A stretch of 48,154 nucleotides of DNA. It comes from a virus (lineage: Duplodnaviria; Caudoviricetes). Both the position numbers and the translations under genes were made by a program. The notes under the pieces are model-generated. The model searched no databases, was not told the DNA's origin, and was given only the letters and a program-made list of their open reading frames with translations. The DNA lies in IMG/VR virus record IMGVR_UViG_3300022177_000052, positions 1-48,154 of that record. One strand, given 5' to 3'. Positions 1 through 48,111 of the stretch are shown in pieces (position 1 is the stretch's first letter; each line of letters starts with the position of its first letter).

Positions 1-41
1 TCAAGTTTCAATCTCACTCTGGTTTCGATTGTAGTTTTCAT
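1..41 (-). CDS. 5' end of a divergent ORF running off the window (MKTTIETRVRLKL...), possibly the prophage repressor
   Basis: ATG at 41-39 on the minus strand, open to the edge; minus-strand -7 box TATTTTTG at 83-76; divergent from a Cro-like gene. An alternative reading is given in the findings. Confidence 0.4.
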   Translation of the reverse strand, partial: MKTTIETRVRLKL

Positions 42-221: not shown

Positions 222-440
222 ATGCAAGTAAAAGTTTACCCGGCTGATGAAGTTAGACCGCAAAGGGGTCCAATTGCAGCCATTCTCAAACGACTAAACC
301 CGGGAGAGGCAGTGAATCTGCCAATGGAAAAACGCAATTCAATCCGTGCTGCAATAAGCCGGATGCACCGCAGAACCGCCTGTAAATACAGGACAGTTAA
401 AATTGATGATCTGGAGATCGCAATTATCCGTGAAAATTAA
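222..440 (+). CDS. Small basic DNA-binding protein (Cro/Xis-like position)
   Basis: 72-aa basic protein, first gene after the early promoter. Confidence 0.55.
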   Translation: MQVKVYPADEVRPQRGPIAAILKRLNPGEAVNLPMEKRNSIRAAISRMHRRTACKYRTVKIDDLEIAIIREN

Positions 441-464
441 TCCTAACCTTAAACAACAGCAACA

Positions 465-1851: not shown

Positions 1852-1862
1852 CAACAGCAACA

Positions 1863-4930: not shown

Positions 4931-5000
4931 TTTCAAAGACTTAAAAACTTACATTTGCAACAGACCTACACAACAGCAACAACCAGTAAAACAGTTATTT

Positions 5001-8815: not shown

Positions 8816-8838
8816 AAACCTAAAAACAACAGCAACAA

Positions 8839-12492: not shown

Positions 12493-12571
12493 AATTTGGA
12501 TATATAGTTGAAATGAACTAATTTAATGTTGTGAAAATGAATAACATAAACCTATACACAACAGCAACAAA

Positions 12572-18840: not shown

Positions 18841-18950
18841 GCCCTCCCTTTCCAAAATAGAAAGATTTATTTTCAAAATAAGATACTTTTGTTTGCTTTT
18901 CTGGTTTCAGCGGTTTACTTTTGGCCGTGAAACCTTAAAACAGCAACCGT

Positions 18951-19504: not shown

Positions 19505-19600
19505 ATAAATAAGTTGATTTTTACAAAATATTTATGCTAATTTGTTGGTTATCAATTATTTAGTATTATATTTACTGTACAAACCTTAACAACAGCAACC
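19505..19600 (+). repeat. ~96-bp promoter/leader cassette repeat, copy 1 of 5
   Basis: ATAAATAAGTTG...AAAATA...TTGTTGGT...TAGTATTATATTTACTGTACAAACCTTAACAACAGCAAC then ATG. Confidence 0.85.
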
Positions 19601-19816: not shown

Positions 19817-19878
19817 GACAGCCCGGCCCCGGGGGACCTCCCCGGGACCCTTTTTAATAACCTTAAACAACAGCAACC

Positions 19879-20337: not shown

Positions 20338-20428
20338 GCCGGTGGCCAGTCCGGGAGCCTGATGGCAATTGTGAGCCGGTCCCGGGGACCTCCCCGGGGC
20401 TGTAAACAAACCTTAACAACAGCAACAA

Positions 20429-21414: not shown

Positions 21415-21511
21415 ATAAATAAGTTGTTTTTTGCAAAATAATTACCGTAACTTGTTGGTAATGAATATTTTGGCATTATCTTTACTGTACAAACTTCAAA
21501 CAACAGAAACA
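21415..21511 (+). repeat. Promoter/leader cassette repeat, copy 2
   Basis: Aligns by eye with copy 1; preceded by a GGGGGC-TTCG-GCCCCC hairpin (21384-21399). Confidence 0.85.
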
Positions 21512-21733: not shown

Positions 21734-21750
21734 CCTTAACAACAGCAACA

Positions 21751-22227: not shown

Positions 22228-22283
22228 AAATATCCTCCCCGGGGACCTCCCGGGGATTTTGTTAACCTTAAACAACAGCAACC

Positions 22284-24138: not shown

Positions 24139-24234
24139 AAATAAGTTGTTATACTAAAAATAATTACTGTATATTGTTGGTAATCAATTATTTAGTATTA
24201 CATTTACAGTATGAACCTAAACACAACAGCAGCC
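24139..24234 (+). repeat. Promoter/leader cassette repeat, copy 3
   Basis: AAATAAGTTG...TTGTTGGTAATCAATTATTTAGTATTACATTTACAGT...CAACAGCAGCC-ATG. Confidence 0.8.
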
Positions 24235-24691: not shown

Positions 24692-24788
24692 ATAAATAAG
24701 TTCATTTTTCAAAAATAATTACTTTATCTTGTTGGTATTCAGTTATTTAGTATTATATTTACTGTACAAACTTCAAACAACAGCAACA
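24692..24788 (+). repeat. Promoter/leader cassette repeat, copy 4
   Basis: Aligns with copy 1; preceded by a hairpin and T run (24653-24680). Confidence 0.85.
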
Positions 24789-25013: not shown

Positions 25014-25067
25014 ATCAAGGGCCGGGGCCTCCCGGCTAATTTACTAACCTCAAACAACAGCAACAGT

Positions 25068-25488: not shown

Positions 25489-25584
25489 ATAAATAAGTTG
25501 TCTTTTTGAAAATATTTACCGTAACTTGTTGGTGCTGAGGCTTTTAGTATTATATTTACTGTACAAACCTTAACAACAGCAACA
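25489..25584 (+). repeat. Promoter/leader cassette repeat, copy 5
   Basis: Aligns with copies 1 and 2; preceded by a hairpin (25450-25468) and T run. Confidence 0.85.
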
Positions 25585-26101: not shown

Positions 26102-26161
26102 AATAACCCGGGGCCCGGGGATATTCCCGGGCTCCATTGTCAAACCTTAACAACAGCAACA

Positions 26162-26927: not shown

Positions 26928-26931
26928 TAAA

Positions 26932-31936: not shown

Positions 31937-32082
31937 AAAGAGGCTTTTTTGATTGTGTGTAAGTTATTTGTGGTCAGGGTTGCTAAAGATGCTAAGGCTT
32001 CATTAAGAGGGGGGTTGCCCTGAGTATTGAGCCGGACCAATGAACCGCCCTGCCACAAATAAAGAAAATCCCAAAAAGAGGT

Positions 32083-33570: not shown

Positions 33571-33582
33571 CACCCTTTAAAC

Positions 33583-34092
33583 ATGGCAGAACGTAGAAGT
33601 ATAGGCTTGAAATCAATCAAGGTTGGTGATATCGCTGTTGATGGCGGTATGGGAACCGTGCTTGCGGCCCTTGGTTTGACTTTTGAGGGCACAGCCACCC
33701 TCACTCAGGAGGACCCTGAGGTTACTCCCTTTTATGCAGAGGAGAATGACGACCCGGTTGAAATGTTATCCTCAAAAGGTGACACCAAACTGGAGTTCGC
33801 AATTATGGACTTTACCCCCTCGGTGATGGCCGAAGTGTTGGGAGGAACCGTTACCGGCACAGGTGATGCCGCAGTATGGAACGCCCCGGAAACAATCCCC
33901 ACAATTGAGAAATCAATTGAAGTTGTTACAAGGAAGGACGTGAGAATCCAGATTCCCCGGGCCAAAATTGATGCCAAAATTGACATGAATCTTGGTAAAA
34001 AGGAAATGGGTTTGATCAGAATTGTTGCAACGGCCCTGAAGCCCACCAAAGCCGGGGAGGCTCCAATCAAAATTGACAAGGTTGTTGTGTAA
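33583..34092 (+). CDS. Major tail tube protein
   Basis: Position and size; followed by a terminator and the chaperone genes. Confidence 0.75.
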   Translation: MAERRSIGLKSIKVGDIAVDGGMGTVLAALGLTFEGTATLTQEDPEVTPFYAEENDDPVEMLSSKGDTKLEFAIMDFTPSVMAEVLGGTVTGTGDAAVWNAPETIPTIEKSIEVVTRKDVRIQIPRAKIDAKIDMNLGKKEMGLIRIVATALKPTKAGEAPIKIDKVVV

Positions 34093-34107
34093 CAGTAAGT
34101 TAAACCT

Positions 34108-34132
34108 GAAACCCTCTCCGGAGGGTTTCTTT
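34108..34132 (+). terminator. Intrinsic terminator after the tail tube gene
   Basis: GAAACCCTC-tccg-GAGGGTTTC followed by TTT. Confidence 0.65.
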
Positions 34133-34145
34133 ACTTTGTGCCATT

Positions 34146-34646
34146 ATGCAGCAGAATGATGCTATATTGAGCGAAAGCCGGGCGGTTGATACAATGCTTG
34201 ATGAAGGTTTCAAATTCACTCTGGAGGCAAAGGGACTTGTAAGGCTATTCGGTAAAAAGACTTACCGTTTTCATGTTAAGCAGCCCTACCTTGGAACCCT
34301 GTTGTTGATTTCCCGGGAGTATCTGAAAATCCACCTTGACGAAACAAAGCTGTCTGATGAAGCCTACCAGAACAGTTACATGCTTGTACCTGAGAACGCC
34401 AAAAGGCTTGCCTTAATCGTTGCTTATGCCATACTGAACAGCCCCCGGAAGATCAAACTTTTTGCCCCGGCCCTATCCAGATGGCTGATGTGGAAAATGA
34501 ATCCAACCAAACTTTTTCAGGTGATGGCGTTCACTGTCATGATCTGCAATGTAGCGTCTTTTACGAACTCTATCAGATTGATACAGACGTTTCGGATGAT
34601 GAAACCGAAAGGGGAAAATCTGAGCCCGGTAGAACAAAGGGGTTAA
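34146..34646 (+). CDS. Tail assembly chaperone (gpG-like)
   Basis: Between tail tube and tape measure genes. Confidence 0.7.
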   Translation: MQQNDAILSESRAVDTMLDEGFKFTLEAKGLVRLFGKKTYRFHVKQPYLGTLLLISREYLKIHLDETKLSDEAYQNSYMLVPENAKRLALIVAYAILNSPRKIKLFAPALSRWLMWKMNPTKLFQVMAFTVMICNVASFTNSIRLIQTFRMMKPKGENLSPVEQRG

Positions 34647-34825
34647 ATAGCCTTTGGGGTAGCGTTTGGTCCATAGCAAACGCAACAGGATGGAACTTTG
34701 ATTACATATTGTGGGGGGTAGCTTGGACAAATTTACAAATGATGATTTCCGATGCCCCGGGGTACACAGACAAGCCAAAAGAAGCCAATTCAGAGGATGA
34801 ACTAAAGGAGTTTTTTAAGATATGA
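34637..34825 (+). CDS. Tail chaperone gpT-like extension, probably reached by a -1 frameshift
   Basis: Overlapping -1 frame ORF (...LNSLWGSVWSIANATGW..DYILW...NLQMMISD) ending at the TMP start; 5' limit approximate. Confidence 0.55.
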   Translation, partial: KGLNSLWGSVWSIANATGWNFDYILWGVAWTNLQMMISDAPGYTDKPKEANSEDELKEFFKI

Positions 34826-37800
34826 AAGGTAACGGTCCCCTTGATTTTGAGGCAACAATAGATGCCAAAACTTTCAACTCAATGTTGGATGAAATGGAGC
34901 GCAGGATTAAGGGCGTTTCGTCAACAGCAGAGAGGGAAACAAGTAAGATTGATGATTCATTCCGGAAGGTTGCCCTTGCCGTTGGGGGGTACTTTTCTTT
35001 TGCTTTCGGGGCCCAATTCACAAAGGAAATTGTAAACGTCCGGGGTGAATTTCAGCAGTTGGAAATAGCATTTGAAACAATGCTTAAAAACAAAGCAAAA
35101 TCAGATGCTTTATTGGCTGATGTCACCATGTTTGCAGCAAAAACGCCCTTTGACATGAAACAGGTAGCAACCGGAGCAAAGCAATTGCTTGCATACGGTG
35201 AAGCCTCAGAGGAGGTTGTTGTTACCATGAAAAAACTCGGGGACATTGCAGCCGGGTTGAGTATTCCGTTTGGGGACCTTGTATATCTGTATGGCACAAC
35301 CAGAACTCAGGGCCGTATGATGACTAAAGACCTGATGCAGTTTGCCGGTCGTGGAATTCCGATCATTGAGGAGCTGTCAAAAACCCTGAACGTAAGCAAG
35401 GCAGACATTCTGGACTTGGCCTCAAAAGGTGAATTAAGTTTTGAACACCTTCAGACTGTTATTGAAAACCTGACAGCCTCAACCGGCATGTTTGGTGGTA
35501 TGATGGACAAACAGGCCGCTTCACTCCCGGGCCTTATTTCCAACCTCGGGGATGCATGGGACCGGATGTTAAATAAGATCGGTACAGGTCAGCAGGATAC
35601 ATTTGCAGATGCAATCAAACTCGCAACAGAGGTTGTTGAAAATTATGAGGTTGTTGTTGATATCCTGAAGGTAGTAATTGCCTCTTATGGAGCATACCGG
35701 GCAGCAGTATTGCTGAATGCTATTGCCGTGAATGGATATTCAAAGGCCCTCGGGTTGGCAATTATCAAGGAAAAGGCCCTTGCACTTGCAAGGAAGGCCA
35801 ATCCGTGGGGGTTGGCATTGGCCGGGATAACGGCTGTAATCGGAGCCTTGGTTGTTTATAAAAACCGGATTTCTGAGGTTGATGAAGCACAACAGCAGAT
35901 CAATGAGAGAATCCGGGATGAAGTTGGTGCAATGGACCAACTTTTTGAAACCCTCAAACGTGGAAATGTAAGCGCAGACCAGAGGAAAGCAATCATTGAC
36001 CAGATCAATGAGAAATATGGTCAATACCTCCCGAACCTGTTGAATGAGAAAAGTTCAATGGCCGACATTGCAGCAGCATACACGTCTGTAAATACAGCAA
36101 TGCGGCATAACATTGAACTGACTGTTAAACGCTCCAAAGCACAGGAATTGTACCTGAAACTGTATGAGCAGGAAATGGAGTATGACAGGATTTCAAAAAT
36201 GACCGGTGACGAGTTTCTAAAAAAGGAAATGGGTGGAGGCGTTGAGGGGGTTAAGGGTCAAGCCAGAAGGACCCGACTGAACTCAATCAAGCAGGTAATG
36301 GATGAACTCCGTGAGGAGTATGAAACATTTATGGCCGAACTCCAAACCCTTGACGGTGATATGTTCGCGCCCCCTTCATTTGATTACAGCAAGTTATTCC
36401 CGGATGATAAGGAAGGGGATAAAAAGATAAAAACGTTTGCTCAGAAACTTGATGAAATCCGGAAACTGTATGAAAATTACTACTTGTGGGCCGAAAATTA
36501 TGGCAAGGATTCAGCAGATAAACAGTTTTCCGGCCTGTTGAAGGGAGGCCAGAATTACCTTACCTATCTGAACAATGAAATCAAGAAACTGGAGGGTATG
36601 CAGAAAAGAACCCCCGGGCAAAATGACAATCTGTTGTTGTTGCTATCCGAAAGGACCGAACTGACAGGGGGGAAATCAAGGGTTGACGAACTCCGGGAGG
36701 AAATTGATGCAGCAAAGGACAGTTACAGCAACCTTGTGGATTACATTGGATTCCTTGGTCATAAATTAGATCAGGAACAAGCCGGAAACGATGGAGGGGA
36801 AAGGACGTTAGCCGTTATCCAACTGTTGCAGGAGGAACTTTCAAAGGCTCAAAAGGAGTATGTTAGCCAGTCCCTTGCGACTTATAACAGCTTGATTGAG
36901 CAGTCCGCTGATTATGCCAAACGTAGGTTGTTGATTGAGGAAGAATACCAGAAAACTGTTGCTAAACTTGACAAGGAAAGCCTTGGAAATGATAAGTACA
37001 ATGAAGCAATTCAGGAGGCTGAAAAGAAAAAACGGGAGGCCCTAAACGTTGTTCAGGAGGATGAAGCCAGACAGTCAGAGGCATACCGGAAAATCCGGGA
37101 TGCAATTGAGCAGTTAACCAATAAAGAGGTCAGAAAATACATTGCTCAGTTGAAACAACAATTGTTGTTACTTGACAGCCAGAGTGATGCCTACAAAGAA
37201 ATTTCAGGGCTGATAAAAACAGCAGAAAAGGGCCTCAGCAGCAAAACAGCAGAGGGGTTTGACACCGCCAGTCAGGCCCTCAGTGCTATGGCACAAATGG
37301 CCGGGGCTTTTAACAAAGAATTATCTGAAAGCATTCAGTTTGCCTCCCAATTGGCCGGGGCCGTTGGACAAATAGCCTCCGGGAATGTGATTGGTGGGAT
37401 TACTCAGGGCGTTGCCTCTATTTTTACCTATGTAGCCAATGCAGCAGCCCGGAAGGAGCAGCAGTATGAGGAAGATAAACAGAGGCAATTGGAGGCCACC
37501 GGGAAGTTGATTGAGAAGTTGAATAAGGGCGTTGAAAAGCAGATTGACCTTATTAATGAACTGGTGGGAAATGACAAGCTAAACCAGTACGGAAGGACGG
37601 TCCTTGAAATTTCCAGATCAATGACTGAGGTAATAAACCAGATGGAGGACCTTGATCAGCTTGTAAAGCGGTCCATGGATGGGAGGACTTATGCATTCAG
37701 CCTGTCTGACAGGTTTTCTGAGGCTGATTTCGACCTGTCCGGGATATCCGGAGCCTTTGAAAGGATTGAAGCCCTCAGGGAGGCTATTATGTCCATTGAG

Positions 37801-38502
37801 GATGATATTGACGCTGTAAATACACAGATTGACAACGGCACAATCAAGGGAGAGGACGTTGAACAGTTACAGCAATTCCTTGCGACATATCAGGATTACG
37901 TGGACAAACTGAAGGAGGTTCAGAACCAGTATTTTGCTGAACTAACCGGGACCTCTTATGACAGCATTGTTGATGGAGTGCTTTCAGCGTTTGAGCAGGG
38001 ATTGAGAGGTGCGGAGGATTTTGCAGACACCTTTGAAGGCCTGATGCGTAAAGCCATGTTACAGGCGTTGAGCGTAAATGCCTTACAGGCCCCTTTGCAA
38101 GGGTGGTATGAAATGTTCGCCCAAATGACTGAGGAAGGGCTATCTGAGCAGGAAATTGCGGTCCTGAGGGAGAGTTACAACAGCATTATCCAGAATGCAG
38201 ACGAGTACGCAAAAATGTTGGAGGATGCAGCCGGAGTAAGCCTGTCAGGGGAAGGGTCAAAGGATGCACTTTCCGGGGCAATCAAGGGAGTAAGCGAAGA
38301 AACAGCCGGGTTAATTGCCGGGCAAATGAATGCTATCCGGATGAATCAGGCCCAAATGCTTGTACTGTTAAATGATCGCCTTGGCGTATTGAACCAGATT
38401 GAAAACCATTCCCGGAACATGGTTTACATGAAGCGTATTTATGACTTTTTGACTGAGAATAATTCCAGGAGTTCGGTATTAACAAACAGATTTGAAGGCT
38501 GA
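34822..38502 (+). CDS. Tail tape measure protein
   Basis: 1226 aa, helical; FAAKTPF, QFAGRGIPI, SNLGDAW. Confidence 0.92.
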   Translation: MKGNGPLDFEATIDAKTFNSMLDEMERRIKGVSSTAERETSKIDDSFRKVALAVGGYFSFAFGAQFTKEIVNVRGEFQQLEIAFETMLKNKAKSDALLADVTMFAAKTPFDMKQVATGAKQLLAYGEASEEVVVTMKKLGDIAAGLSIPFGDLVYLYGTTRTQGRMMTKDLMQFAGRGIPIIEELSKTLNVSKADILDLASKGELSFEHLQTVIENLTASTGMFGGMMDKQAASLPGLISNLGDAWDRMLNKIGTGQQDTFADAIKLATEVVENYEVVVDILKVVIASYGAYRAAVLLNAIAVNGYSKALGLAIIKEKALALARKANPWGLALAGITAVIGALVVYKNRISEVDEAQQQINERIRDEVGAMDQLFETLKRGNVSADQRKAIIDQINEKYGQYLPNLLNEKSSMADIAAAYTSVNTAMRHNIELTVKRSKAQELYLKLYEQEMEYDRISKMTGDEFLKKEMGGGVEGVKGQARRTRLNSIKQVMDELREEYETFMAELQTLDGDMFAPPSFDYSKLFPDDKEGDKKIKTFAQKLDEIRKLYENYYLWAENYGKDSADKQFSGLLKGGQNYLTYLNNEIKKLEGMQKRTPGQNDNLLLLLSERTELTGGKSRVDELREEIDAAKDSYSNLVDYIGFLGHKLDQEQAGNDGGERTLAVIQLLQEELSKAQKEYVSQSLATYNSLIEQSADYAKRRLLIEEEYQKTVAKLDKESLGNDKYNEAIQEAEKKKREALNVVQEDEARQSEAYRKIRDAIEQLTNKEVRKYIAQLKQQLLLLDSQSDAYKEISGLIKTAEKGLSSKTAEGFDTASQALSAMAQMAGAFNKELSESIQFASQLAGAVGQIASGNVIGGITQGVASIFTYVANAAARKEQQYEEDKQRQLEATGKLIEKLNKGVEKQIDLINELVGNDKLNQYGRTVLEISRSMTEVINQMEDLDQLVKRSMDGRTYAFSLSDRFSEADFDLSGISGAFERIEALREAIMSIEDDIDAVNTQIDNGTIKGEDVEQLQQFLATYQDYVDKLKEVQNQYFAELTGTSYDSIVDGVLSAFEQGLRGAEDFADTFEGLMRKAMLQALSVNALQAPLQGWYEMFAQMTEEGLSEQEIAVLRESYNSIIQNADEYAKMLEDAAGVSLSGEGSKDALSGAIKGVSEETAGLIAGQMNAIRMNQAQMLVLLNDRLGVLNQIENHSRNMVYMKRIYDFLTENNSRSSVLTNRFEG

Positions 38503-38504
38503 TT

Positions 38505-39167
38505 ATGGCAAATATCAAGTATTCAATAAACGGTAAAAATGTTTCTGATTTCGGAATCAGAATCCTTTCAGTTGATGGTATTTTCGACCTCCCAAAACGA
38601 AAAATCGGATACCGGCATTCATGGTCAGAGGTTTCCGGGGAGGATATTGACCTGAGTGAGGTTGCACTGGAGCCCCGGATAATCAAACTTGATGGCATTG
38701 CAGTTGCTGAATCTATTTCACTTGCAATGACCAATCTTTCGTCATTCCTTGCAATCATTGACACCCCGGGCCCGAAACAGTTGTCAATTGAGTATGACAG
38801 CACCAGAACACCGGCCCCGGCCCTGACATACCTTGTATTCCGGGAGGAACAGGTAAAGGTTGAAAAGCAATTCAGGTTTGGCCGGAATGTTTGGAAGTTT
38901 TCATTGACCTTGCAGGAATATCTACCATACAAAAGCATTTACAGGTTCAATGCAGCAGCCGGGAGTGATTTATCAATGCAATTCACAGCATTGACAAGGC
39001 CTGTTATACTGTTTACCGGGGATGGCAGGAGTGCCGAAATAACCGACATAAACACCATTTCAATTGACTATCCTGTTGCCGGGAGTTACGTTGTCGGGGT
39101 ATTCTCAAACCACCCTTCGGATTTTCAGGTTGGGACCACTAACGCAACTTTTATATGGAAACTGTAA
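38505..39167 (+). CDS. Distal tail protein
   Basis: Follows the TMP; YSING....FGI, HSW.E..GED. Confidence 0.65.
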   Translation: MANIKYSINGKNVSDFGIRILSVDGIFDLPKRKIGYRHSWSEVSGEDIDLSEVALEPRIIKLDGIAVAESISLAMTNLSSFLAIIDTPGPKQLSIEYDSTRTPAPALTYLVFREEQVKVEKQFRFGRNVWKFSLTLQEYLPYKSIYRFNAAAGSDLSMQFTALTRPVILFTGDGRSAEITDINTISIDYPVAGSYVVGVFSNHPSDFQVGTTNATFIWKL

Positions 39168-41266
39168 TAATATACTCAGGCAGCACCGCCCCGGGGCAAA
39201 TGCATGACCCCTACATTGTACGCCCGAAAAGTAGTTCAGGGCTGCAACAGAAGTTACTTGCGGAGGATTTCATTAAACTGGACTTTGAGAGCCCTATTGA
39301 ATTGAACGTAACCCTGAAGGATTATATTCAGGTTTTTGGCCGGAAATACTTCATTAACACAATGCCGGTTGTTACGAAAAAGGCAGCCCGATTATTCAAT
39401 TATGAGTGCACTTTTGAGAGTTACATTTATGACCTATCAAAGGTTGCATTTCTGGACGTTGATGCCACCGGAATACATATTTCACACGAGTTCACATTGA
39501 CCGGGAAACTGGAGGATTTTGGTCATGTGATTAAAAACAACCTCCGGAGGCTTTTCGGGAATAACGGTTGGGACTGTATAAACCTTTATGCAGAGGGCCT
39601 GAATGAAACAAAAACCCTCAGTTTTTCTGAGGATACCTGTTTATCAGCCCTCCGGAAAATTTGTTCGGAGTACGGGGTTGAATACTATTTCACTGAGAAC
39701 GGCCCCGGGGCTGAATACCAGTTTCACCTGTATTTTGGTCTGGTTGGAGGGCTCCCGGTTTCGGACCCTTTTGAGTATGGCAAAGGGAAAGGACTGACAG
39801 AGATTAAGCGTAAAAACGCTTCAGCCTCAAACTTCATTACAAGGGTTTATGCGTTTGGCAGCAGCCGGAACCTTGGACCAAACTACCGTAATTTTTCCCC
39901 CCGACTCAGATTACCGGCCGTGCACATTACTCCGGATATCTTTGTCACAAAGGGCGTTGAAATACAGCACTTCCCGAGTACATATATTTACGGTCAGACT
40001 AATGCAGCATTTGTACAACTGCAGGTCCCTGTTATTGAAGGATGGACCGATTACGGTCAGCCGATGGCAGGAGCGCAGTTTAATGCCGGGCAAGGCCTTA
40101 CATATACTCAGCCCCCGAAGGTTGACGGATTCAGGGTAAAAGCATGGAATGAAGCCGGGAAATATGTTTTCAGTGATGGCAGTTATGAAGGATGGGAAAA
40201 CACCGGGCCAGAAATTGACTATGTGGAAAACCTTGAAGCCATTGAAAAACATGGAGTGATTGAAAAGGTGGTCATTTTTGACGAAATCTATCCTCACAGG
40301 ACCGGGATTGTAAGCGGTTTGGGGGATTCCTCGTTAAAATTCGTTGATTCCGAAATGTTTGACCTGAATGAATACCAGAATGGTGCATATACTTACCTAT
40401 TGCCCGGGCTATCGGCAAAGGTTCATTTCAACACCGGGAACCTTGCAGGATATGAGTTTGAAATCTGGAATTACAATCATGCCTCCCGGGAGTTTACGCT
40501 AATGAGTTACACGGATGAACGTGGTCTGGTGCTCCCGAACAACACCTCCCCGGCCTTTCAAATTGGCGTTGGGGATGAATACGTTATTCTGGACATAAAA
40601 TTGCCTGAATCCTACATTGAGGCAGCAGAACAAAGGTTGCTTGAAAAGGCCACGGATTGGTTAAACAGGTATAGCAACCCTCAGATTGCCCTTGATGTAA
40701 AGGTTGATGAAACATACATTTCCGGGTTAAACATGCAGATTGAAATTGGAAATACGATGCATGTAATTGACCAGTCTTTTAACGTGAATGCCATTTACCG
40801 GATTGTAGGCATTACCAGAAACCTAATCAGGGAGGACCAGTTTGAGGTTACGTTGGCAGAGGAGGTTTATAGGGGCCGGAATGCCAATTTCAGAGAGGGC
40901 AACAAAAAGGGAGGGGGAATATTCAAAACCGGAGGTACTGAAACCCATGACAGGTTGCATTCAATGACTTCGGTTTATGACCATGGTGCCGCAGAGGAAA
41001 AGGACCGGAATAAGGTGCTTGGTTCAAATGCAGAAACCGGTTTGCCGGAGTGGATTGCAAAGGATTCGCTTGATAAATTTTTTGTACACTATCAGGGGGT
41101 GCCTGAGGCCGTTTGGAATGTGAGCCACAACCTGAATAAATACCCTTCAGTTACGATAATTGACACCTCCGGAAATGAAATGGAGGGGGAAATTGAGTAC
41201 ACTGATAACAACAATTTAGTATTAACCTTTTCGGCTCCCTTTTCCGGGGTAGCCTTTCTAAACTAA
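39155..41266 (+). CDS. Tail tip / baseplate hub protein (Tal-like)
   Basis: FEYGKGKGL, ITRVYAFGSSRNL, FDEIYPHRTG, FNTGNLAGYEFE. Confidence 0.75.
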   Translation: METVIIYSGSTAPGQMHDPYIVRPKSSSGLQQKLLAEDFIKLDFESPIELNVTLKDYIQVFGRKYFINTMPVVTKKAARLFNYECTFESYIYDLSKVAFLDVDATGIHISHEFTLTGKLEDFGHVIKNNLRRLFGNNGWDCINLYAEGLNETKTLSFSEDTCLSALRKICSEYGVEYYFTENGPGAEYQFHLYFGLVGGLPVSDPFEYGKGKGLTEIKRKNASASNFITRVYAFGSSRNLGPNYRNFSPRLRLPAVHITPDIFVTKGVEIQHFPSTYIYGQTNAAFVQLQVPVIEGWTDYGQPMAGAQFNAGQGLTYTQPPKVDGFRVKAWNEAGKYVFSDGSYEGWENTGPEIDYVENLEAIEKHGVIEKVVIFDEIYPHRTGIVSGLGDSSLKFVDSEMFDLNEYQNGAYTYLLPGLSAKVHFNTGNLAGYEFEIWNYNHASREFTLMSYTDERGLVLPNNTSPAFQIGVGDEYVILDIKLPESYIEAAEQRLLEKATDWLNRYSNPQIALDVKVDETYISGLNMQIEIGNTMHVIDQSFNVNAIYRIVGITRNLIREDQFEVTLAEEVYRGRNANFREGNKKGGGIFKTGGTETHDRLHSMTSVYDHGAAEEKDRNKVLGSNAETGLPEWIAKDSLDKFFVHYQGVPEAVWNVSHNLNKYPSVTIIDTSGNEMEGEIEYTDNNNLVLTFSAPFSGVAFLN

Positions 41267-41274
41267 TCAAAATT

Positions 41275-42456
41275 ATGGGAAAAAAGATTTATCTGGTTGA
41301 CATTGATTTAGCAAAAAACCAGTTGATTCAGGTTAGGTTGGAAAACTTGGCCTCAGCACCGGCAAGCCCTGTATCCGGTCAGATTTATTATGATACCACG
41401 CTTGGAAAGTGTAGGTATTACACCGGTTCGGCATGGGTAACTATTGACGATATGAATGACCCCCGAACCCCCAAAAGCCATGTTCTTGCGACAAATGTAG
41501 GCCTTGGAGGGGAGCACACCATTTCAGGGGCCACAGCCGGTCACGCCCTCGTTGCCACAGGACCAACGGCAGCCCGGTTTGAGCAGATCAACCACGAAAA
41601 CCTTGCAAATAAGGGGTCCAATACACACGCTCAGATTGACAGCCATATTGGTAACGCTGATATACACAGGGAGTTGAATGATAACCTGACTTCAACAACC
41701 AATCTTTGGTCTGCAAGTAAGATTAACAACCTTATTACGGCCTTGCAGAATGCAGTCACCGGAGCCCTGGTCTTTAAGGGTGGTTACGATGCTGCAACCA
41801 ACACCCCGAACCTGACAACCCCGGCAGCAGGAGCCGTTTTGCAGGGTTATACTTACGTTGTGACCGTGGCCGGAACATTTCACGGAGAGGCTGTGCAGAT
41901 CGGTGACATGATCATTGCCAGACAGGATAACCCGTCTTCATTGGCTCACTGGACGTTGGTAAATAAAAACATTCCGGACATTCTGGATGCAAGCGAAACA
42001 CAAAAAGGTATTGTTGAACTTGCCACGAATGCCGAAACCAACACCGGGACTGATACAACCCGGGCCGTACACCCGGCAGGGCTGAAATATGTGCTCGACA
42101 ACAGGAACGCTACTGAAACGGTCAGAGGTTTGATTGAGTTGGCTACTCAGGCAGAGGTTACAGCCGGAACGGATACTGTCCGGGCAGTCACCCCGGCCAC
42201 CCTTGCCGGAGTATTGGGGACAGGCGGTACACTTTCAAATGCAAGGAAATTCACGCAAACACTGACAACCAGTGCAACCAGTTACACCATTACCCACAAC
42301 CTGAACAGTCAGGCTGTTGTTGTTTCGGTACGTGATACTGCAACCCCTTTCAATGAGGTGGAGGTTGACGTTACCATTACCGGAGTGAATACGGTAGTAT
42401 TGGCTTTTAACACGGCCCCGGCTGCAAACAAATACGCTGTTACTGTAATCGGATAA
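41275..42456 (+). CDS. Tail fibre protein
   Basis: Two A(S/T)ET.(K/R)G..ELAT.AE...GTD..RAV fibre repeats. Confidence 0.75.
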   Translation: MGKKIYLVDIDLAKNQLIQVRLENLASAPASPVSGQIYYDTTLGKCRYYTGSAWVTIDDMNDPRTPKSHVLATNVGLGGEHTISGATAGHALVATGPTAARFEQINHENLANKGSNTHAQIDSHIGNADIHRELNDNLTSTTNLWSASKINNLITALQNAVTGALVFKGGYDAATNTPNLTTPAAGAVLQGYTYVVTVAGTFHGEAVQIGDMIIARQDNPSSLAHWTLVNKNIPDILDASETQKGIVELATNAETNTGTDTTRAVHPAGLKYVLDNRNATETVRGLIELATQAEVTAGTDTVRAVTPATLAGVLGTGGTLSNARKFTQTLTTSATSYTITHNLNSQAVVVSVRDTATPFNEVEVDVTITGVNTVVLAFNTAPAANKYAVTVIG

Positions 42457-42458
42457 CT

Positions 42459-43655
42459 ATGGCAGGGAAAAGGTTTTTAACGCAACTGGAAATCCTGATC
42501 AATTCAACCCTGAGTGCCCCGGAATCAGGGCACTTGGGGTTTGGTGCCAAATCGGAAGGGTTCTACATGATAACCCCCACGGCTGAACACCTTATTTTAA
42601 CCACTCAGGAAATGTTAACTGAGGTCCGGGCCTCAGGAGATGCCAAAGACGAAAAGGTTGTAACAGAGGCCGGGATACGCAGGGCTATTGATGCAATGGC
42701 AGGTTCACTGCAACAGCCAATTATGGTTGAGGAAAAACATTTGTTAGGACGACACCCGGGGACTGGTACAGGACCACCTGAACATGTTCGCCTTGGGTAC
42801 GGCTTAGGTTGGGATGCTAACGGCGAAATTGAGGTAACTATTTCAGGAGGGGGAGGCTCCGGGACTGTTACAAGTGTGGGGCTATCTATGCCTGCCATTT
42901 TCAGTGTAGGCCCCCCGGTGACGACCTCCGGGGACTTGACGGCAGCATTGGTTTCGCAGACAAAAAACTATGTTTTTGCCGCCCCCTATTCAGGCAATGG
43001 CGTGCCTACTTTTCGTCCCCTTGTAGGGTCAGACTTGCCGGACCTTTCAGGCTCTTTTGACTTTTACGGCAGTTGGAATATGCAGGTTAATTCAGGGACT
43101 ACAAAACTGGTTGGGAAAACCGGCACAAGTCAATATGGAAATTTGTACAATGGCATTAAGCTGATTGCCGGGGCAAATGTTACCCTGTCAGAATCAAATG
43201 CCAGTGGTGCGCTTGGAATTACAATCAGCGCAGCAGCAGGAGGTGGTGGAGGCCTGATCTTTACCCAAATGACCCTGAACCAGTCCCCGAGTCCAATAAC
43301 CGCAGGCGTTTGGACCGATGTGCCAACCATGTCTGTAAGCACTTGGGGTGACGGAGCCTATTTAGTGATTGCACATGTTTCAATGGTAAAAGGCACTACC
43401 GGGGCGGGGTCTGTGGCAATGCAGATTGTGACCGATGGGAATACTGCAATTGCCACCGGGGAGCAATACATGTTAAGTGCTTCAGCCAACAGAGCAACAA
43501 TATCATTGAGCAGTGTTTTTATGGTCGAAAAGGGGGACCCTGCAAGTGTAAGAATGCGGATTCATTCAAACACCTCCGGTTGGTCAGCCGTTGCTTCAAC
43601 GCTGAACTCACAAAGCCCAAACGCAACGCAAATAACTTTAATAAAGATTGCATAA
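42459..43655 (+). CDS. Tail fibre / receptor-binding protein
   Basis: GGGGSGTVTSVGLS and G.PTFR.LV.SDLP fibre segments; beta-rich C-terminal head. Confidence 0.7.
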   Translation: MAGKRFLTQLEILINSTLSAPESGHLGFGAKSEGFYMITPTAEHLILTTQEMLTEVRASGDAKDEKVVTEAGIRRAIDAMAGSLQQPIMVEEKHLLGRHPGTGTGPPEHVRLGYGLGWDANGEIEVTISGGGGSGTVTSVGLSMPAIFSVGPPVTTSGDLTAALVSQTKNYVFAAPYSGNGVPTFRPLVGSDLPDLSGSFDFYGSWNMQVNSGTTKLVGKTGTSQYGNLYNGIKLIAGANVTLSESNASGALGITISAAAGGGGGLIFTQMTLNQSPSPITAGVWTDVPTMSVSTWGDGAYLVIAHVSMVKGTTGAGSVAMQIVTDGNTAIATGEQYMLSASANRATISLSSVFMVEKGDPASVRMRIHSNTSGWSAVASTLNSQSPNATQITLIKIA

Positions 43656-43656
43656 A

Positions 43657-44178
43657 ATGGAAACACCAGAAATCAAACGAACTGAAAAACTGACAAACGG
43701 AGAGGTTGTTGAACTGTATCACAATCTGAACAATATTCAAGGTCTGAAAGGTAAATCCGTGCTCTATGCGGTAAGCAAAACCAAATCAAGCCTCAAACCC
43801 TTGGTAAGGGCTTTTGATCATTATAAAATGGTCCCAAAGCCTGAGAGGTTTGCAGAATATGAGAACGAAATTAAGAAGGCCGTTGCAGCAGCCCGGGAGA
43901 AACTTGTCAAGGAGGATCCCGGACACCCGGCACTGGTGAAAACAGAATCCGGAATAATTGAACTGAGGGCCGATTCTGTTGAGGCTCAGGAAATTGCTGA
44001 ACGTCTGAAAAACAAGTATTCTGAAGTTATTGAGGAGTACACGAAAGCAATCAAGGAGTACAATAAATTCCTTGATCAGGAATGTACTGAGGATTACACT
44101 ATTACCAAATTTCCGTTTGCCGATGCCCCTGAGGAACAGGATAAGTTTGAGGCCCTGTTTCTGTTAATCAAAGATTGA
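43657..44178 (+). CDS. Hypothetical protein (fibre-associated chaperone position)
   Basis: Charged helical protein after the fibre genes. Confidence 0.55.
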   Translation: METPEIKRTEKLTNGEVVELYHNLNNIQGLKGKSVLYAVSKTKSSLKPLVRAFDHYKMVPKPERFAEYENEIKKAVAAAREKLVKEDPGHPALVKTESGIIELRADSVEAQEIAERLKNKYSEVIEEYTKAIKEYNKFLDQECTEDYTITKFPFADAPEEQDKFEALFLLIKD

Positions 44179-44195
44179 TTTCTTTGAGAAAAATA

Positions 44196-44248
44196 TTACC
44201 ATGATGGTATTTTTTTTGTTGGAAAATATTACCATCATGGTAACTTTG
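44196..44248 (+). promoter_or_regulatory. Tandem palindromic operators overlapping the lysis promoter
   Basis: TTACCATGATGGTAT 44196-44210, TTACCATCATGGTAA 44229-44243, TAACTTTG 44241-44248. Confidence 0.7.
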
Positions 44249-44274
44249 TCAGATAAACCTAAAACACTTTATCA

Positions 44275-44595
44275 ATGCACTGGTGGGAAATCGCTTTGAC
44301 AAATCTATTCACTTTATTGGCAGGCCTCGTTGGAGGTGGGTGGTACTCAAAAAAGAAGGCCCTTGCTGATGCTGAAGGTTCGGAACTTGACAACCTGAAG
44401 GAGATCATTGTAACGTGGAAAGAATCTTACAATGATTTAAAGCAGCAGAGGGAGGAGTTTAACAAGCTGTCCATTGACTTGCAGAGAGAGAATATTGAAA
44501 TGCGTCAGGAAATTTCAGACCTGAAACAACAGGTTAAGAAACTGCAATGTGAAAACAGTGAATTGAAGAAGGAAATTGAAAAACTGAAGCAATGA
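44275..44595 (+). CDS. Putative holin (one TM helix plus coiled coil)
   Basis: N-terminal hydrophobic helix, coupled to the endolysin. Confidence 0.6.
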   Translation: MHWWEIALTNLFTLLAGLVGGGWYSKKKALADAEGSELDNLKEIIVTWKESYNDLKQQREEFNKLSIDLQRENIEMRQEISDLKQQVKKLQCENSELKKEIEKLKQ

Positions 44596-45116
44596 CAAGG
44601 CAGCAATTTAAAAATGCGTTACCATACGCAACAGAGGCCAATATTGATAAGTTTTATCAGCCGATGCTTGACACTTTCAGTAAGTTTTGCATTGATACCA
44701 AGTTACGGCAGGCCGCTTTCATTGCACAAATAGCACACGAATCCGGCTCGTTGAAATACGTCCGGGAAATAGCCTCCGGAGTAGCTTATGAAGGTAGGAA
44801 GGCCCTCGGGAACACTGAGCCCGGGGATGGTCCCAAATACAAAGGCAGGGGATTAATCCAGTTGACAGGTAGGGCCAATTATGAAGCAGCCTCCAAATAT
44901 TTCCGGACTGATTTTGTCAGATTCCCGGAGTGGGTTGAACGGCCAGAATATGCAACAGCGGTAAGCGGTTGGTTCTGGTACCGGCACAAACTGAATCCCC
45001 TTGCAGATGTCCGGGACATTCGCAGGATTACAAAGATCATTAACGGAGGGTACAATGGTTTGGACAGTAGAATAACCCATTACAACAGGGCCCTGAAGGC
45101 GTTTGGAATACAATAG
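44592..45116 (+). CDS. GH19 endolysin
   Basis: AAFIAQIAHESG, YKGRGLIQLTGRANY, ITKIINGGYNGL. Confidence 0.93.
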   Translation: MTRQQFKNALPYATEANIDKFYQPMLDTFSKFCIDTKLRQAAFIAQIAHESGSLKYVREIASGVAYEGRKALGNTEPGDGPKYKGRGLIQLTGRANYEAASKYFRTDFVRFPEWVERPEYATAVSGWFWYRHKLNPLADVRDIRRITKIINGGYNGLDSRITHYNRALKAFGIQ

Positions 45117-45121
45117 CAGCC

Positions 45122-45697
45122 ATGAGAAACTTAAACCAGATATTGAACTTTGCAATCCTGATTGTATGCGTTGGCCTTGCTTTATGGTGGGGCTTTTCGG
45201 AGAGATCAGAGAAACTGAGGTATAAGGATAATTTTGAGGCTGAAGTTGTCAAAAATGGCAGACAGGTTTATGTTACCGAAATGGAATACTCCCGGCTGTA
45301 CTCAGAAATTGACAGTCTTTCCCGGGAACTCGGGAAAAAACCAAAACACATTGTCCAGATTGTTAAGGTTGATTATCAGGTAAGGGATACAGCAGAGGCA
45401 ACATTGACAGGGGACACTGTTTATCTGGTCCGGAATGACACCATATTTGTTCAGCCGGACACCCTGAGGTTTAATATTGAACGGCCTTGCTATTTACTTA
45501 CCGGGTATGTTTATAACAGCAGAATCAAGGCTGAAATTGATTTCCGGGACAAACCTATGGTTATATTTGACCGAGAAAGGAGCAAACGGTTTCTGTTTAT
45601 CAAATATGGTCCATGGCAATATTCTGCAACCTTTTACAGCCAGTGTTCAGGCAAAACTATGTGGATACAGGAAAATATTTTGATTAAGCGAAAATAG
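45122..45697 (+). CDS. Putative spanin (Rz-like)
   Basis: N-terminal TM anchor and coiled segment, after the endolysin. Confidence 0.55.
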   Translation: MRNLNQILNFAILIVCVGLALWWGFSERSEKLRYKDNFEAEVVKNGRQVYVTEMEYSRLYSEIDSLSRELGKKPKHIVQIVKVDYQVRDTAEATLTGDTVYLVRNDTIFVQPDTLRFNIERPCYLLTGYVYNSRIKAEIDFRDKPMVIFDRERSKRFLFIKYGPWQYSATFYSQCSGKTMWIQENILIKRK

Positions 45698-45710
45698 TTT
45701 TGTATATTTG
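45679..45710 (+). promoter_or_regulatory. Consensus Bacteroidetes promoter driving the small RNA
   Basis: TTTG (45679-45682), 20-bp spacer, TATATTTG (45703-45710). Confidence 0.75.
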
Positions 45711-45714
45711 CATA

Positions 45715-45779
45715 ACAATCCCTCCATTACGTTGCTGTTGTGGAGAAGGTTAAGAGCCCTGAGAAATCGGGGCTTTTTT
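45715..45779 (+). ncRNA. Candidate trans-acting antisense small RNA (~65 nt) complementary to the CAACAGCAAC gene leaders
   Basis: Promoter-to-terminator unit with no ORF; CTCCA/TGGAG stem displays GTTGCTGTTG (45731-45740); second block AAGGTT (45746-45751); 5' end approximate. Confidence 0.7.
45755..45779 (+). terminator. Intrinsic terminator
   Basis: AGCCCTGA-GAAA-TCGGGGCT followed by TTTTT. Confidence 0.85.
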
Positions 45780-45792
45780 CAATCATTTATTT

Positions 45793-46029
45793 ATGTCGTT
45801 ATTTTGCTCTCAGTGTTGTGGAGATTGGGGAATGGAAGCAGACATTGATTTGTTTGATTTAGCCCTTAATCTGGAGAATGGAAGGAGTGAATCATTTATT
45901 TGTGAAGGTTGTAATAATCGGGCCGTATACAAGGATGAAGAAGGCTTTATTTACCTTGCCCGGGAGATCAATAGGGAGATCATTTTAATACCAGTTCAAA
46001 TTTCCGAACTGATGTATGCAGAAAAATAA
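45793..46029 (+). CDS. Small Cys-rich hypothetical protein
   Basis: FCSQC...ICEGC. Confidence 0.6.
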   Translation: MSLFCSQCCGDWGMEADIDLFDLALNLENGRSESFICEGCNNRAVYKDEEGFIYLAREINREIILIPVQISELMYAEK

Positions 46030-46044
46030 TATCAGACGTCAATT

Positions 46045-46150
46045 ATCTGTTACAATCTGTAACAATCTGTCACAGTAATCGGATTTCTGTAACAGAAATG
46101 CAACAAATAAGAATAGAAAAGAAAAGAATAAAAAAGAATAGAAAAGAAAA
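46045..46150. repeat. TGTnACA iteron cluster with purine-rich tract (ori-like block 2)
   Basis: Three tandem ATCTGTnACA, then CTGTAACAGAAATGCAACAAATAAGA and an A/G tract; 21 bp identical to 29327-29347. Confidence 0.7.
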
Positions 46151-46196
46151 TATTCCTGTTAATTTAACATAAATCAAAACCCAAAAACCAAAAGTT

Positions 46197-46796
46197 ATGG
46201 AAACAAGTGATTGGATAGCAATTGCAGCAGTATTGATAGCTGCATTCTCGTGGATTTCGCAATACAGATTAAGTAAAAAAGCGAATGAAGCTACAAAAAT
46301 TTCAAATGATATTCAGGCTGAAATGCTTACTCTATCAGCAAAAGTTGAAGAGTTTGAGGACAGAAAGGGTGAGGTATTATTATTGAATATCATTGGCAGA
46401 TATTTTGTTATCAACTATAACTTTTTGAGTACTACTGACGACAGACAACTTGAAGTAGACAAAAAAAAGTATTCGTCTGGTTTAATGCAACTATCAATGG
46501 ATTTTGAGAAGTTGATTGATAATCCGTATTTCATTAAATTCATTGAAGCGCACCCGGATATAAATCTGTTAATGCTTTCACTCAAAGGGGCTATAATTAA
46601 TGAAAGTTATTCAACTGGCAGAGTAATTAATGCTCAAACTTTTAATTTCTTTTATGACATGTATTTTGTTTTGAAAGACGAATTAAAGAATAAGGAAATG
46701 CTTAACCATCGGTTTTTCAAAGTTGTACAAGAAGCAATTATCAGTATGAAGCTTGTTTTAAAAGAAAATGAAAATCCTCCAAAGCTAAAGGCCTAA
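46197..46796 (+). CDS. AT-rich moron membrane-anchored protein
   Basis: N-terminal TM helix; convergent with the integrase. Confidence 0.6.
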   Translation: METSDWIAIAAVLIAAFSWISQYRLSKKANEATKISNDIQAEMLTLSAKVEEFEDRKGEVLLLNIIGRYFVINYNFLSTTDDRQLEVDKKKYSSGLMQLSMDFEKLIDNPYFIKFIEAHPDINLLMLSLKGAIINESYSTGRVINAQTFNFFYDMYFVLKDELKNKEMLNHRFFKVVQEAIISMKLVLKENENPPKLKA

Positions 46797-46801
46797 AACA
46801 A

Positions 46802-48016
46802 TCAAATCTTAATATCAGCCTCCAAAACAGGGGTATTGCTTGACAGACCTAATGACTTCAGATAAATCATTGTTGTTGCCAGATCGTAGTGCCTCAATTG
46901 TCGCATTAAGGCATAAGGGTCCTTGATTTCTTTGTACAATTCGACTACTCCGGAGTGTTTCCATGAGTACAGCGTTTTGCTTGAATCAATTTTCAAGGCT
47001 TTTAAAAATTCCTTGTGCATGTGTGTTATTGCGTCAGCTTTCATGCGTTTGGTTTCCCCGGGCAATAAATTCCTACTGAAAACATAAAATCCATGAGGGT
47101 ATTTTTCAAGGTTCAAAGACTTTAAAAAGACCAAAAATTCTTTTGGAATAGAAACGGCCTCTTGTTTCCTATTCTTGGCGGAGCCATAGGTAATCAAAAT
47201 TGTCCGTGATGCCAAACTGATATCATGTATTTTCAGATTCAGAATTTCAGTCCTCCGGAGGTAACAATAATACATAAACTGGACAAAAAGAAAGAGTTGA
47301 GGGTTTTCGGCTTTTAACTTTTTGGCAAGGGCAGTTCTTTCAGTGGTCGTAAATGCAATATTTTTACCAATATCACGTCTAAGGGGCTTTATCCCCTTGA
47401 ATGGATTTTCAGTTATATGCTTTCGCTCAATAAGGAGATTAAACAAGGTTATCAGCATACTCAAATGTTTGTTATGAGTAGAAGCGCCGTAACCAGATGC
47501 AAGCCTACTATCAAGATATTTCCTTGCAAGTTCGTTTGTGAATTGATCAGGCTTGATATTCAACAGTCCCTCGGACTTTAACCACCCCTCAAACACTTTT
47601 TGAACGTCAATGTATGTTCTGGTAGATTCCGGCTTGACGTGGGATTTTCTAATCTCAATAAGGTATTTGAGGGATTCAATTAACGTCTTATTGCTTGATA
47701 TCTTTTTATCGTCTGAGGATTCTGGAAGCCCTTTGGAAGGGGTCCAGCCAAGTTGAAGCAGATCAGATAAAGCAGATTTCAGGGCGTTACCCTCCGCAAT
47801 GCGCTCCGCTTTCGTTGAAAATTTATTTATATCCCCTCTAAGTTGATATTGCTTATAAGCATTCAATTCATTATCGTAATATCTGAAGCCAACAAACCAC
47901 TTTTTATTAAGGTTGTACTTGAAATGATATAGCTTTGGTTTTGAGTACATTTCAACCGCACCACTTATTTGAGGATTTATTTGAGGTAAATTGTAAATAC
48001 TTGATATATAGCGCAA
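46802..48016 (-). CDS. int: Tyrosine recombinase / phage integrase (likely ATG start at 47950)
   Basis: LRRTEILNLKIHDI, K, YSWKHSG, QLRH, T.IYL catalytic pattern; adjacent to a tRNA. Confidence 0.92.
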   Translation of the reverse strand: MRYISSIYNLPQINPQISGAVEMYSKPKLYHFKYNLNKKWFVGFRYYDNELNAYKQYQLRGDINKFSTKAERIAEGNALKSALSDLLQLGWTPSKGLPESSDDKKISSNKTLIESLKYLIEIRKSHVKPESTRTYIDVQKVFEGWLKSEGLLNIKPDQFTNELARKYLDSRLASGYGASTHNKHLSMLITLFNLLIERKHITENPFKGIKPLRRDIGKNIAFTTTERTALAKKLKAENPQLFLFVQFMYYCYLRRTEILNLKIHDISLASRTILITYGSAKNRKQEAVSIPKEFLVFLKSLNLEKYPHGFYVFSRNLLPGETKRMKADAITHMHKEFLKALKIDSSKTLYSWKHSGVVELYKEIKDPYALMRQLRHYDLATTMIYLKSLGLSSNTPVLEADIKI

Positions 48017-48029: not shown

Positions 48030-48111
48030 TGCGGATGAAGGGACTCGAACCCCCACGCCTCTCGGCACCAGATCCTAAGTCTGGCGCGGCTACCAATTAC
48101 GCCACATCCGC
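48030..48111 (-). tRNA. tRNA-Leu (anticodon TAG); probable attachment site at its 3' end
   Basis: Minus strand GCGGATG...TGGTA...CCAGA-CTTAGGA-TCTGG, long variable arm, GTTCGAGTC, CATCCGC-A; promoter TATATTTG at 48128-48121. Confidence 0.97.

Follow-up and report, generated by a model that had tools for sequence, protein, structure and literature searches.

Our analysis concerns a 48,154-base stretch of viral DNA, a single virus record (IMGVR_UViG_3300022177_000052 in IMG/VR), which is called the window here. Directly after its last lysis gene lies a small putative transcription unit, and we predict that this unit probably specifies a non-coding RNA of about 65 nt that acts in trans as an antisense repressor of the phage's own early regulon. 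The unit has a promoter, a hairpin and a terminator; its seed is complementary to a 10-nt tag, CAACAGCAAC, that is repeated in front of start codons; it is found at an equal position in five phages; and RNA and leaders have changed in a matched way among related phages. This matched change is the strongest evidence.

The unit and its complementary tags

The last gene of the lysis cassette (45122..45697, + strand) is spanin-like by position, with a DUF6549 match below the cut-off, and is called a spanin on that basis. Inside its final codons lies the -33 box TTTG of a sigma-ABfr-type promoter (45679..45682, +), which is kept in a related Lentimicrobium prophage. The -7 box TATATTTG (45703..45710, +) stands 20 nt after it, and TTTG-N20-TATATTTG is the sigma-ABfr consensus (in passages of PMC7366714). 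The RNA unit begins 5 nt past the spanin stop. Its predicted RNA (45716..45780, +; the 5' end is placed from the -7 box) contains no open reading frame (ORF) and folds with a z-score of -4.1. A stem of CTCCA (45722-45726) and TGGAG (45741-45745) forms a hairpin (45722..45745, +) that presents the seed GUUGCUGUUG (45731..45740, +). The seed is the exact complement of the tag and is identical in the Lentimicrobium prophage and in a more distant phage, G006. A second block, AAGGUU (AAGGTT in DNA; 45746..45751, +), is complementary to AACCT(T) in the leaders. The intrinsic terminator (45752..45779, +) is a hairpin with an 11-bp stem (45752-45776) that runs into T6 (45774-45779), and it is the first terminator-like hairpin detected after the lysis genes. 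A simple terminator scan returned 0 sites at the unit, despite the folded 11-bp stem before U6.

An ORF-free body, an own promoter and an intrinsic terminator (the one that the simple scan missed) are what is expected of a trans-encoded base-pairing small RNA (sRNA). The original prediction had proposed such a unit, and the positions of the boxes and the fold bear it out. The CTCCA/TGGAG stem that it described is also present, but the loop is not fully open: RNAfold adds two inner pairs that pinch the 14-nt loop, and the bases about GUUGCU are the most open. The unit had further been placed among the morons, which is incorrect, as it stands directly after the spanin and ahead of them.

Over the whole window, CAACAGCAAC occurs in 14 copies on the + strand and in a single copy on the - strand, at 45731-45740; 100 shuffles gave a mean of 0.13 and a maximum of 1. 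The reverse copy sits in one of the three distinct promoter-terminator units that a scan of the window detected. When the 39-nt 5' part of the RNA was shuffled 2,000,000 times, GTTGCTGTTG appeared in exact form 88 times. All 14 exact copies were found at the starts given in the original prediction, all on the + strand. Thirteen of them lie 1-3 nt before an ATG and that of the helicase gene lies 20 nt before it, an enrichment at start codons with a binomial P of about 4e-21. The one-mismatch copies reported at 18938, 21501 and 24224 are real and lie 1-3 nt before an ATG as well. Six further one-mismatch + copies are not ahead of a start (472, 3480, 4136, 28210, 32639 and 42099), and the copy at 472 falls within the first codons of gene 465.

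Five of the tagged targets belong to the core early/replication arm. In order along the + strand, the tags precede gene 465, which follows the cro-like gene (454..463); a 404-amino-acid gene after recT (1852..1861); the SNF2 helicase gene, where the tag lies just after a -7 box (4971..4980); gene 8839 (8827..8836); gene 12572, MgsA_C-like below the cut-off (12559..12568); a DUF2786 gene, with one mismatch (18938..18947); gene 19601 (19590..19599); a RadC-like JAB gene (19868..19877); gene 20429 (20417..20426); gene 21512, with one mismatch (21501..21510); gene 21751 (21740..21749); a DUF4942/methyltransferase-like gene (22273..22282); gene 24235, with one mismatch (24224..24233); gene 24789 (24778..24787); an ArdC-N anti-restriction-like gene (25055..25064); gene 25585 (25574..25583); and a DUF6908 gene (26151..26160). 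The description of these targets as an anti-defence class fits only a few of them (the ArdC-N, RadC-like JAB and DUF4942 methyltransferase-like genes), and most are unannotated. As had been claimed, late genes lack the leader: tags precede 0 of 23. The claim that most leaders carry the complement of block 2 also holds, with AACCT in 14/17 tagged leaders, 3/20 untagged early leaders and 3/23 late ones, although the motif is enriched rather than exclusive. The tag is not a host-wide leader, since the full pattern was found in only 2 of 401 Bacteroidales genomes, one of which carries the related Lentimicrobium prophage. Among the seven non-prophage AACAGCAAC-ATG sites of the Lentimicrobium host, six open no credible gene and one stands before a 39-amino-acid ORF.

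Matched change of RNA and leaders in related phages

The closest relative of the window phage is the Lentimicrobium sp. prophage (capsid identity 79%), and the window phage, which is uncultured, is therefore likely to have a Bacteroidales host. In the prophage RNA the stretch TTACGTTGCTGTTGTGGAG is unchanged, while the arms of the retained hairpin stem, block 2 and the terminator differ. The seed is thus kept, but block 2 has gone from AAGGUU to GUUUGUUUGACUU (GUUUGAC), and the leaders have gone from AACCT to GTCAAAC. Over 32 kb, GTCAAAC occurs six times on the coding strand, and five of these copies directly precede a tag on its 5' side, as antiparallel pairing with the RNA would demand. The spacing of the two blocks ranges from 2 to about 45 nt, and twice it runs across a hairpin that would loop out. 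GTCAAAC has one copy on the + strand of the window. Ten orthologous gene pairs (31-71% identity) were compared, seven of them tagged, and for 13 of the 14 leaders in these seven pairs the predicted binding is stronger with the cognate RNA; for instance, the Lentimicrobium 20921 leader gives -20.8 kcal/mol with its own RNA against -6.1 kcal/mol. This compensatory swap supports the bipartite pairing that had been proposed.

Other phages show the same trend. The RNA of G007 begins GUUGUUGCGGU, and its leaders carry (AC)CGCAACAAC; the phage has no CAACAGCAAC, and the window has one CGCAACAAC that is not at a start. The G006 RNA combines the window's seed with two GUGAUUA blocks. When start-associated copies are counted against total copies, the resulting matrix is near-diagonal: AACAGCAAC scores 15/16 in the window, 5/6 in the Lentimicrobium prophage, 3/6 in G006 and 0/0 in G007; CGCAACAAC scores 7/9 in G007, 2/3 in G026 and 0/1 in the window; TAATCAC scores 8/19 in G006 and 0/3 in the window; and AACCTT scores 17/68 in the window and 1/25 in the Lentimicrobium prophage. 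Covariation across related phages, which the original prediction had put forward as a check, was therefore found: in four phages the RNA seeds or second blocks match the phage's own leaders and not those of the window. The tag can also be shifted into the opening codons of a gene instead of preceding its ATG, as is seen in several phages, and such sliding fits an mRNA target. Two further properties expected of a trans-encoded sRNA are thus seen here, a conserved accessible seed complementary to several translation starts and, as natural variation in a few phages, compensatory change of RNA and targets.

The unit stands at the equivalent post-spanin position in four other phages, namely the Lentimicrobium prophage, G007 (complete; capsid 54%), G026 (Pedobacter sp. 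B4-66; capsid 53%) and G006 (capsid 22%, minor head 42%). The -7 box has an equal position relative to the spanin stop in the first three and lies 19 nt after it in G006. The lysis enzymes beside the unit are unrelated among the five phages (GH19, amidase, lysozyme), and the genes downstream of it differ. A blind scan took in 32 phage sequences; a capsid gene was present in 31 of them, and in 22 it was followed by at least 16 kb. It detected a -7 box at a stop codon ahead of a post-lysis terminator in four, the window, the Lentimicrobium prophage, G007 and G026. The longer post-spanin unit of G006 was missed by this detector, so the negatives of the scan are soft. With that limit, neither the unit nor an enriched tag was detected in Porphyromonas phage005a, Riemerella phage RAP44 and most capsid relatives. 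In G009 a -7 box follows the stop by 25 nt, but there are just two weak leader matches. G014-G016 carry ATCGCAACAAC tags in sequences that do not include the post-lysis region. An apparent unit in G015 was rejected as the reverse strand of a leader.

Wider searches added little. A leader pattern scan (80 loci) gave mostly chance matches, and the informative ones were G003, G004, G002 and G006; G003 and G004 are near-identical fragments of the window phage (about 92-98% identity) and are not independent. Promoter-plus-seed scans of viral contigs were set aside as essentially noise (80 loci of 120+ inspected; 69/69), and one of their loci, L452, resembled the back of a leader. A search of the Lentimicrobium family gave no further prophage (1/39). 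Eleven distant spanin loci were followed by assorted 3' units. Five loci after distant spanin homologues (L473, L474, L475, L477 and L480) have 3' regions like the back of a leader plus a start codon, and L475, L477 and L480 have two tandem promoter-terminator units. Separately, RAP44 has a promoter-terminator unit antisense to the start of gp74 (-7 box at L004:42314, +), which by its layout resembles lambda OOP or paQ.

Weight of the evidence, rival explanations and mechanism

Pairing energies were compared by counting RNA-leader cofolds below -10 kcal/mol on automated gene calls. The window RNA scored with 16/40 early/accessory and 0/23 late window genes, and the RNAs of G007 and G026 with 1/40 early/accessory window leaders each. 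With their own RNAs, the Lentimicrobium prophage scored 8/26 early and 0/20 late (3/26 early with the window RNA), G007 5/33 and 0/25, and G026 3/49 and 1/28. Among cognate pairs, the early-versus-late rank test was significant for the window only (p 0.004). The weight of the case lies with the exact-match and swap evidence and not with these energies.

Several observations weigh against repression of a regulon by this RNA. The rank tests were not significant for the Lentimicrobium prophage (p 0.083), G007 (0.75) or G026 (0.2). Shuffled RNA 5' domains reached 16/40 in one of 25 cases and 10 or more in four of 25, because a G/U-rich RNA binds C/A-rich leaders. The unit was found in only 4 of the 22 capsid-related sequences with at least 16 kb downstream of the capsid gene. 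The compensatory block-2 swap comes from a single phage pair, window leader 19601 prefers the foreign RNA (the sole exception among the 14), and G026 provides weak support with just two start-associated tags. AACCT is also present ahead of some late genes, and the anti-AUG CAU of the window RNA is lost in the Lentimicrobium prophage. Among 11 listed sequencing runs, seven are RNA, each with a share of 0.16 or less. Four RNA runs over 27000-46999 gave low-depth contigs only (depth 2-6), none of which outlines a 65-nt RNA. One RNA-run contig covers 45730-46036 through the terminator; the contigs do not reveal strand, ends or DNA carry-over.

The alternative that survives best concerns timing and leaves the pairing itself in place. 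The RNA might be produced solely as the 3' part of the lysis transcript, in which case it would shut off early translation late and have no role in the lysogen. The scan finds no terminator between the spanin and the unit, the lysis cassette is preceded by palindromes of its own (44196 and 44229), and an RNA-library contig of another run spans pieces of the spanin (its strand is not revealed). A consensus -7 box would be needless for a mere 3' untranslated region, however, and it is kept at the spanin stop in five phages despite unrelated lysis genes. We regard this late-only variant as possible but not the likelier form of the repressor reading.

Could the tag instead be a strong translation enhancer spread by cassette duplication, with the reverse copy as an inverted remnant or as the leader of a 26-amino-acid minus-strand gene? 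Accessory leaders do lie within longer repeats (a 137-nt cassette x5, a GC hairpin x6), and A occupies position -3 in 12 of 17 tagged leaders, where it is a positive determinant in Bacteroidetes (PMC6847099). The minus strand also reads tag-GTA-ATG plus 26 codons. Nevertheless, the mini-gene was rejected because its ATG is missing in the Lentimicrobium prophage and the 460 nt upstream of it on the minus strand contain no TAnnTTTG box; the promoter and U tract face the + strand. Nor would a mere remnant be expected in the same place in five phages, each time with a second block that fits. Duplication accounts for some accessory tags, but it leaves the tags of core genes, the reverse copy and the swaps unexplained. 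Enhancer and sRNA target are moreover compatible roles, as GcvB shows. We therefore consider this explanation unlikely.

A further alternative, to which we give little credence, would have the tag serve as an asymmetric operator in the DNA or be bound by a protein in the mRNA, with the reverse copy as an extra operator or decoy. Asymmetric one-way operators exist, such as the stoperators of Cluster A phages (part of PMC3203893), and several tags coincide with the start sites of the promoters that serve them. Tag spacing is fixed to the ATG and not to promoters, however, and the tag at 1852 follows a stop codon inside an operon. A decoy would carry the sense motif, yet the + strand holds the promoter and terminator. 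The separate palindrome TTACCA-N3-TGGTAA is a better candidate for a DNA operator, and the block spacing of 2 to about 45 nt in the Lentimicrobium prophage also speaks against a protein site. A CsrB-like sponge would have several sense copies of the motif on its transcribed strand, and the unit has one antisense copy. Finally, pairing might stabilise or activate the leaders, or guide a protein, instead of repressing, but we hold this to be very improbable: some leaders have upstream GC hairpins and sequence alone is compatible with it, but the predicted duplexes cover bases beside the AUG, often the AUG itself, and no partner gene travels with the unit, as the downstream flanking genes vary.

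Returning to the repressor reading, the open loop bases would nucleate on CAACAGCAAC, the weak stem would then open, and AAGGUU could pair with AACCT just upstream of the tag. The duplex would cover about -25 to -1 and often the AUG, that is, the unstructured A/C-rich leader where Bacteroidetes ribosomes are thought to load, and translation of the 17 tagged early and accessory genes would be blocked. In Bacteroidetes, initiation does not use Shine-Dalgarno pairing and relies on low structure and upstream adenines (PMC6847099). Given this, and since GibS represses through pairing at start codons and GcvB silences ACA enhancers, repression is the likely outcome. The housekeeping-type promoter may keep the RNA on in the lysogen and let it accumulate after infection, and read-through from the lysis operon, sharing the lysis terminator, may add RNA late. 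The accessory genes have promoter-like cassettes of their own. Synthesis of early and accessory proteins would then be confined to a brief burst, and the RNA would add a second lock to that of the protein repressor.

More tentatively, and with rather less than even confidence, we propose that temperate phages stamp early, recombination and anti-defence genes with a start tag, and that one mirror RNA after the lysis operon serves as a master off-switch. RNA and tags would drift together, which would amount to a second, CI-independent type of immunity, and the same design would explain the start-associated sequences (SAS) of Cluster K phages. If the repressor reading is right, one RNA would control about a quarter of the phage's genes via a co-evolving tag, adding a post-transcriptional master switch to the lysis-lysogeny circuit. 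Anti-restriction-type genes could be timed without an Aca-like protein, and newly acquired accessory genes could join the regulon by gaining ten bases. The system would also be a compact model, apparently independent of Hfq, for how translation is silenced in Bacteroidetes, which lack Shine-Dalgarno pairing, and a natural source of orthogonal pairs of RNA and leader. The role of start-associated phage repeats, such as the Cluster K SAS, becomes a testable question.

Phage setting and comparison with known systems

The window reads as a temperate siphophage-type prophage. Its gene order begins with recT, exonuclease, SNF2 helicase and replication genes, followed by terminase, portal and minor head, and continues with an accessory island (18.5-26.6 kb), a restriction-modification moron, head, tail and lysis genes, morons, integrase and tRNA. 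The tyrosine integrase gene (46802..48016, -) adjoins the tRNA gene at 48030-48111. At the other end, a divergent helix-turn-helix (HTH) repressor-like gene is cut by the window edge, and its 5' end (1..41, -) was read by eye. Its first residues match those of Lentimicrobium gene L214:5941-6273 (HTH_3, E 0.019, below the cut-off), whose neighbour matches HTH_26 (E 1.4e-6). The first early gene (222..440, +) is cro-like by position, is 51% identical to the Lentimicrobium gene at the equivalent place and has no Pfam match; in G007 a clear HTH_26 gene lies opposite the cro-like gene. In the window, the Lentimicrobium prophage and G007 alike, no tag precedes the cro-like gene, and the gene that follows it has one. 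Since a divergent HTH repressor gene is present, we rejected the RNA as a substitute for CI, and it would rather be a second layer added to a protein switch.

Other features of the window were observed alongside. The accessory island, between the minor head and scaffold genes, has the 137-nt promoter cassette x5, GC-rich hairpins x6 and very short leaders; in G004, a near-identical phage, the 19.6-kb region adjoins the 25.5-kb region without anything between them, which suggests a cassette-mediated deletion. The restriction-modification moron (26646-28981) comprises a DUF6471 HTH gene, a C5 methyltransferase and a convergent Cfr10I/Bse634I endonuclease; it is untagged, and it is missing from the corresponding stretch of G004. 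At 16753-18729, a minor head protein with a long C-terminal extension stands before a small gene whose match to the Tis1 immunity family is weak (E 5e-5, below the cut-off), a possible polymorphic-toxin/immunity arrangement. The palindrome TTACCA-N3-TGGTAA occurs at 4894, 4916, 11088, 15077, 29458, 44196 and 44229. It precedes helicase, ParB-like, portal, scaffold and holin genes and lies 19-20 nt ahead of the -7 box at two sites; two copies are kept in the Lentimicrobium prophage, and half-sites recur in accessory promoters. It is a candidate operator or late-activator site. A CTGTAACAGAAATGCA-type element is repeated at the scaffold promoter (29149-29435) and in the moron gap (46061-46142), and in the ORF list similar repeats were seen in a row in Lentimicrobium (L214, about 4300-5340), just outside the prophage repressor genes.

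The unit belongs to no Rfam family: a cmscan of the whole window to E 1 gave only a tRNA and a chance snoRNA match, with no C4-type match and none to GcvB or GibS. Our literature search, whose coverage left out most subscription journals, turned up no paper on a phage RNA whose antisense target is a tag recurring in the leaders of that same phage. The antisense RNAs described for phages so far (c4, CI, sar and OOP) control one or a few genes. The c4 and CI RNAs use two pairing blocks and set the type of superinfection immunity, and c4 is processed from an operon transcript by RNase P. The original prediction had named them as precedent, which is apt for loop-presented two-block pairing, but the multi-target sRNAs GcvB and GibS are equally close. 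Like the unit, c4 of P1/P7 and CI of P4 are RNAs of temperate phages with phage-specific, loop-presented pairing near the ribosome-binding region (passages of PMC12197685), and such pairing is predicted here. Unlike the unit, which is free-standing after the lysis genes and has 17 scattered targets, c4 controls the antirepressor mRNA of its own operon. In the window annotation the 17 targets lie 19-45 kb away and none is an annotated antirepressor, and the presence of a -7 box and a terminator in the unit itself points to a primary transcript rather than c4-like processing. From its sequence, we do not class the unit with c4/CI.

Phage-encoded trans-acting sRNAs reportedly include PreS of lambda. 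Another example is VpdS of VP882 (passages of PMC12197685). Both differ in being Hfq-dependent and mainly host-directed, and the passages describe no repeated tag in the phage's own leaders. We rejected sRNA1/2 of PAK_P3 as a precedent, as only single 11-nt phage matches are described in the part of PMC4933390 that we cite.

The SAS of Cluster K phages resemble the tags in the window in having 11-19 one-way copies a few bases before non-structural starts and, in K1 phages, one reverse copy (passages of PMC3203893). Their function was open in 2011 (PMC3203893) and in 2024 (PMC11373665), again as stated in passages of these papers. They differ in containing a Shine-Dalgarno core, and the same passages propose no RNA; a search of PMC12699233 for a reverse SAS turned up nothing relevant. 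In Adephagia, the single reverse SAS forms the loop of a long intergenic hairpin in the gap between genes 92 and 93 (L485:43655-43720), and hairpins of this type were found in 131 Mycobacterium phage records. Double changes affect 2 of 18 stem pairs in six sequences, and the anti-SAS loop is intact in four of the six; it is altered in Amohnition, whose 17 SAS are unchanged, and lost in SirPhilip. Cluster K may thus offer a culturable analogue, a lead on mixed evidence.

Among host systems, GcvB of enterobacteria likewise has its own promoter and terminator and uses a G/U-rich seed against C/A-rich, ACA-containing starts of many mRNAs, silencing ACA enhancers (PMC3879156). The two seed regions of GibS, an sRNA of Bacteroides thetaiotaomicron, pair with mRNAs around their start codons and so repress them, with no known Hfq or ProQ (passages of PMC7366714). 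Both sRNAs control host metabolic regulons through imperfect sites; in contrast, we predict that the phage RNA described here is aimed at genes of the phage itself, by way of a 10-nt tag that is nearly the same in all of them and that varies together with the RNA from phage to phage.
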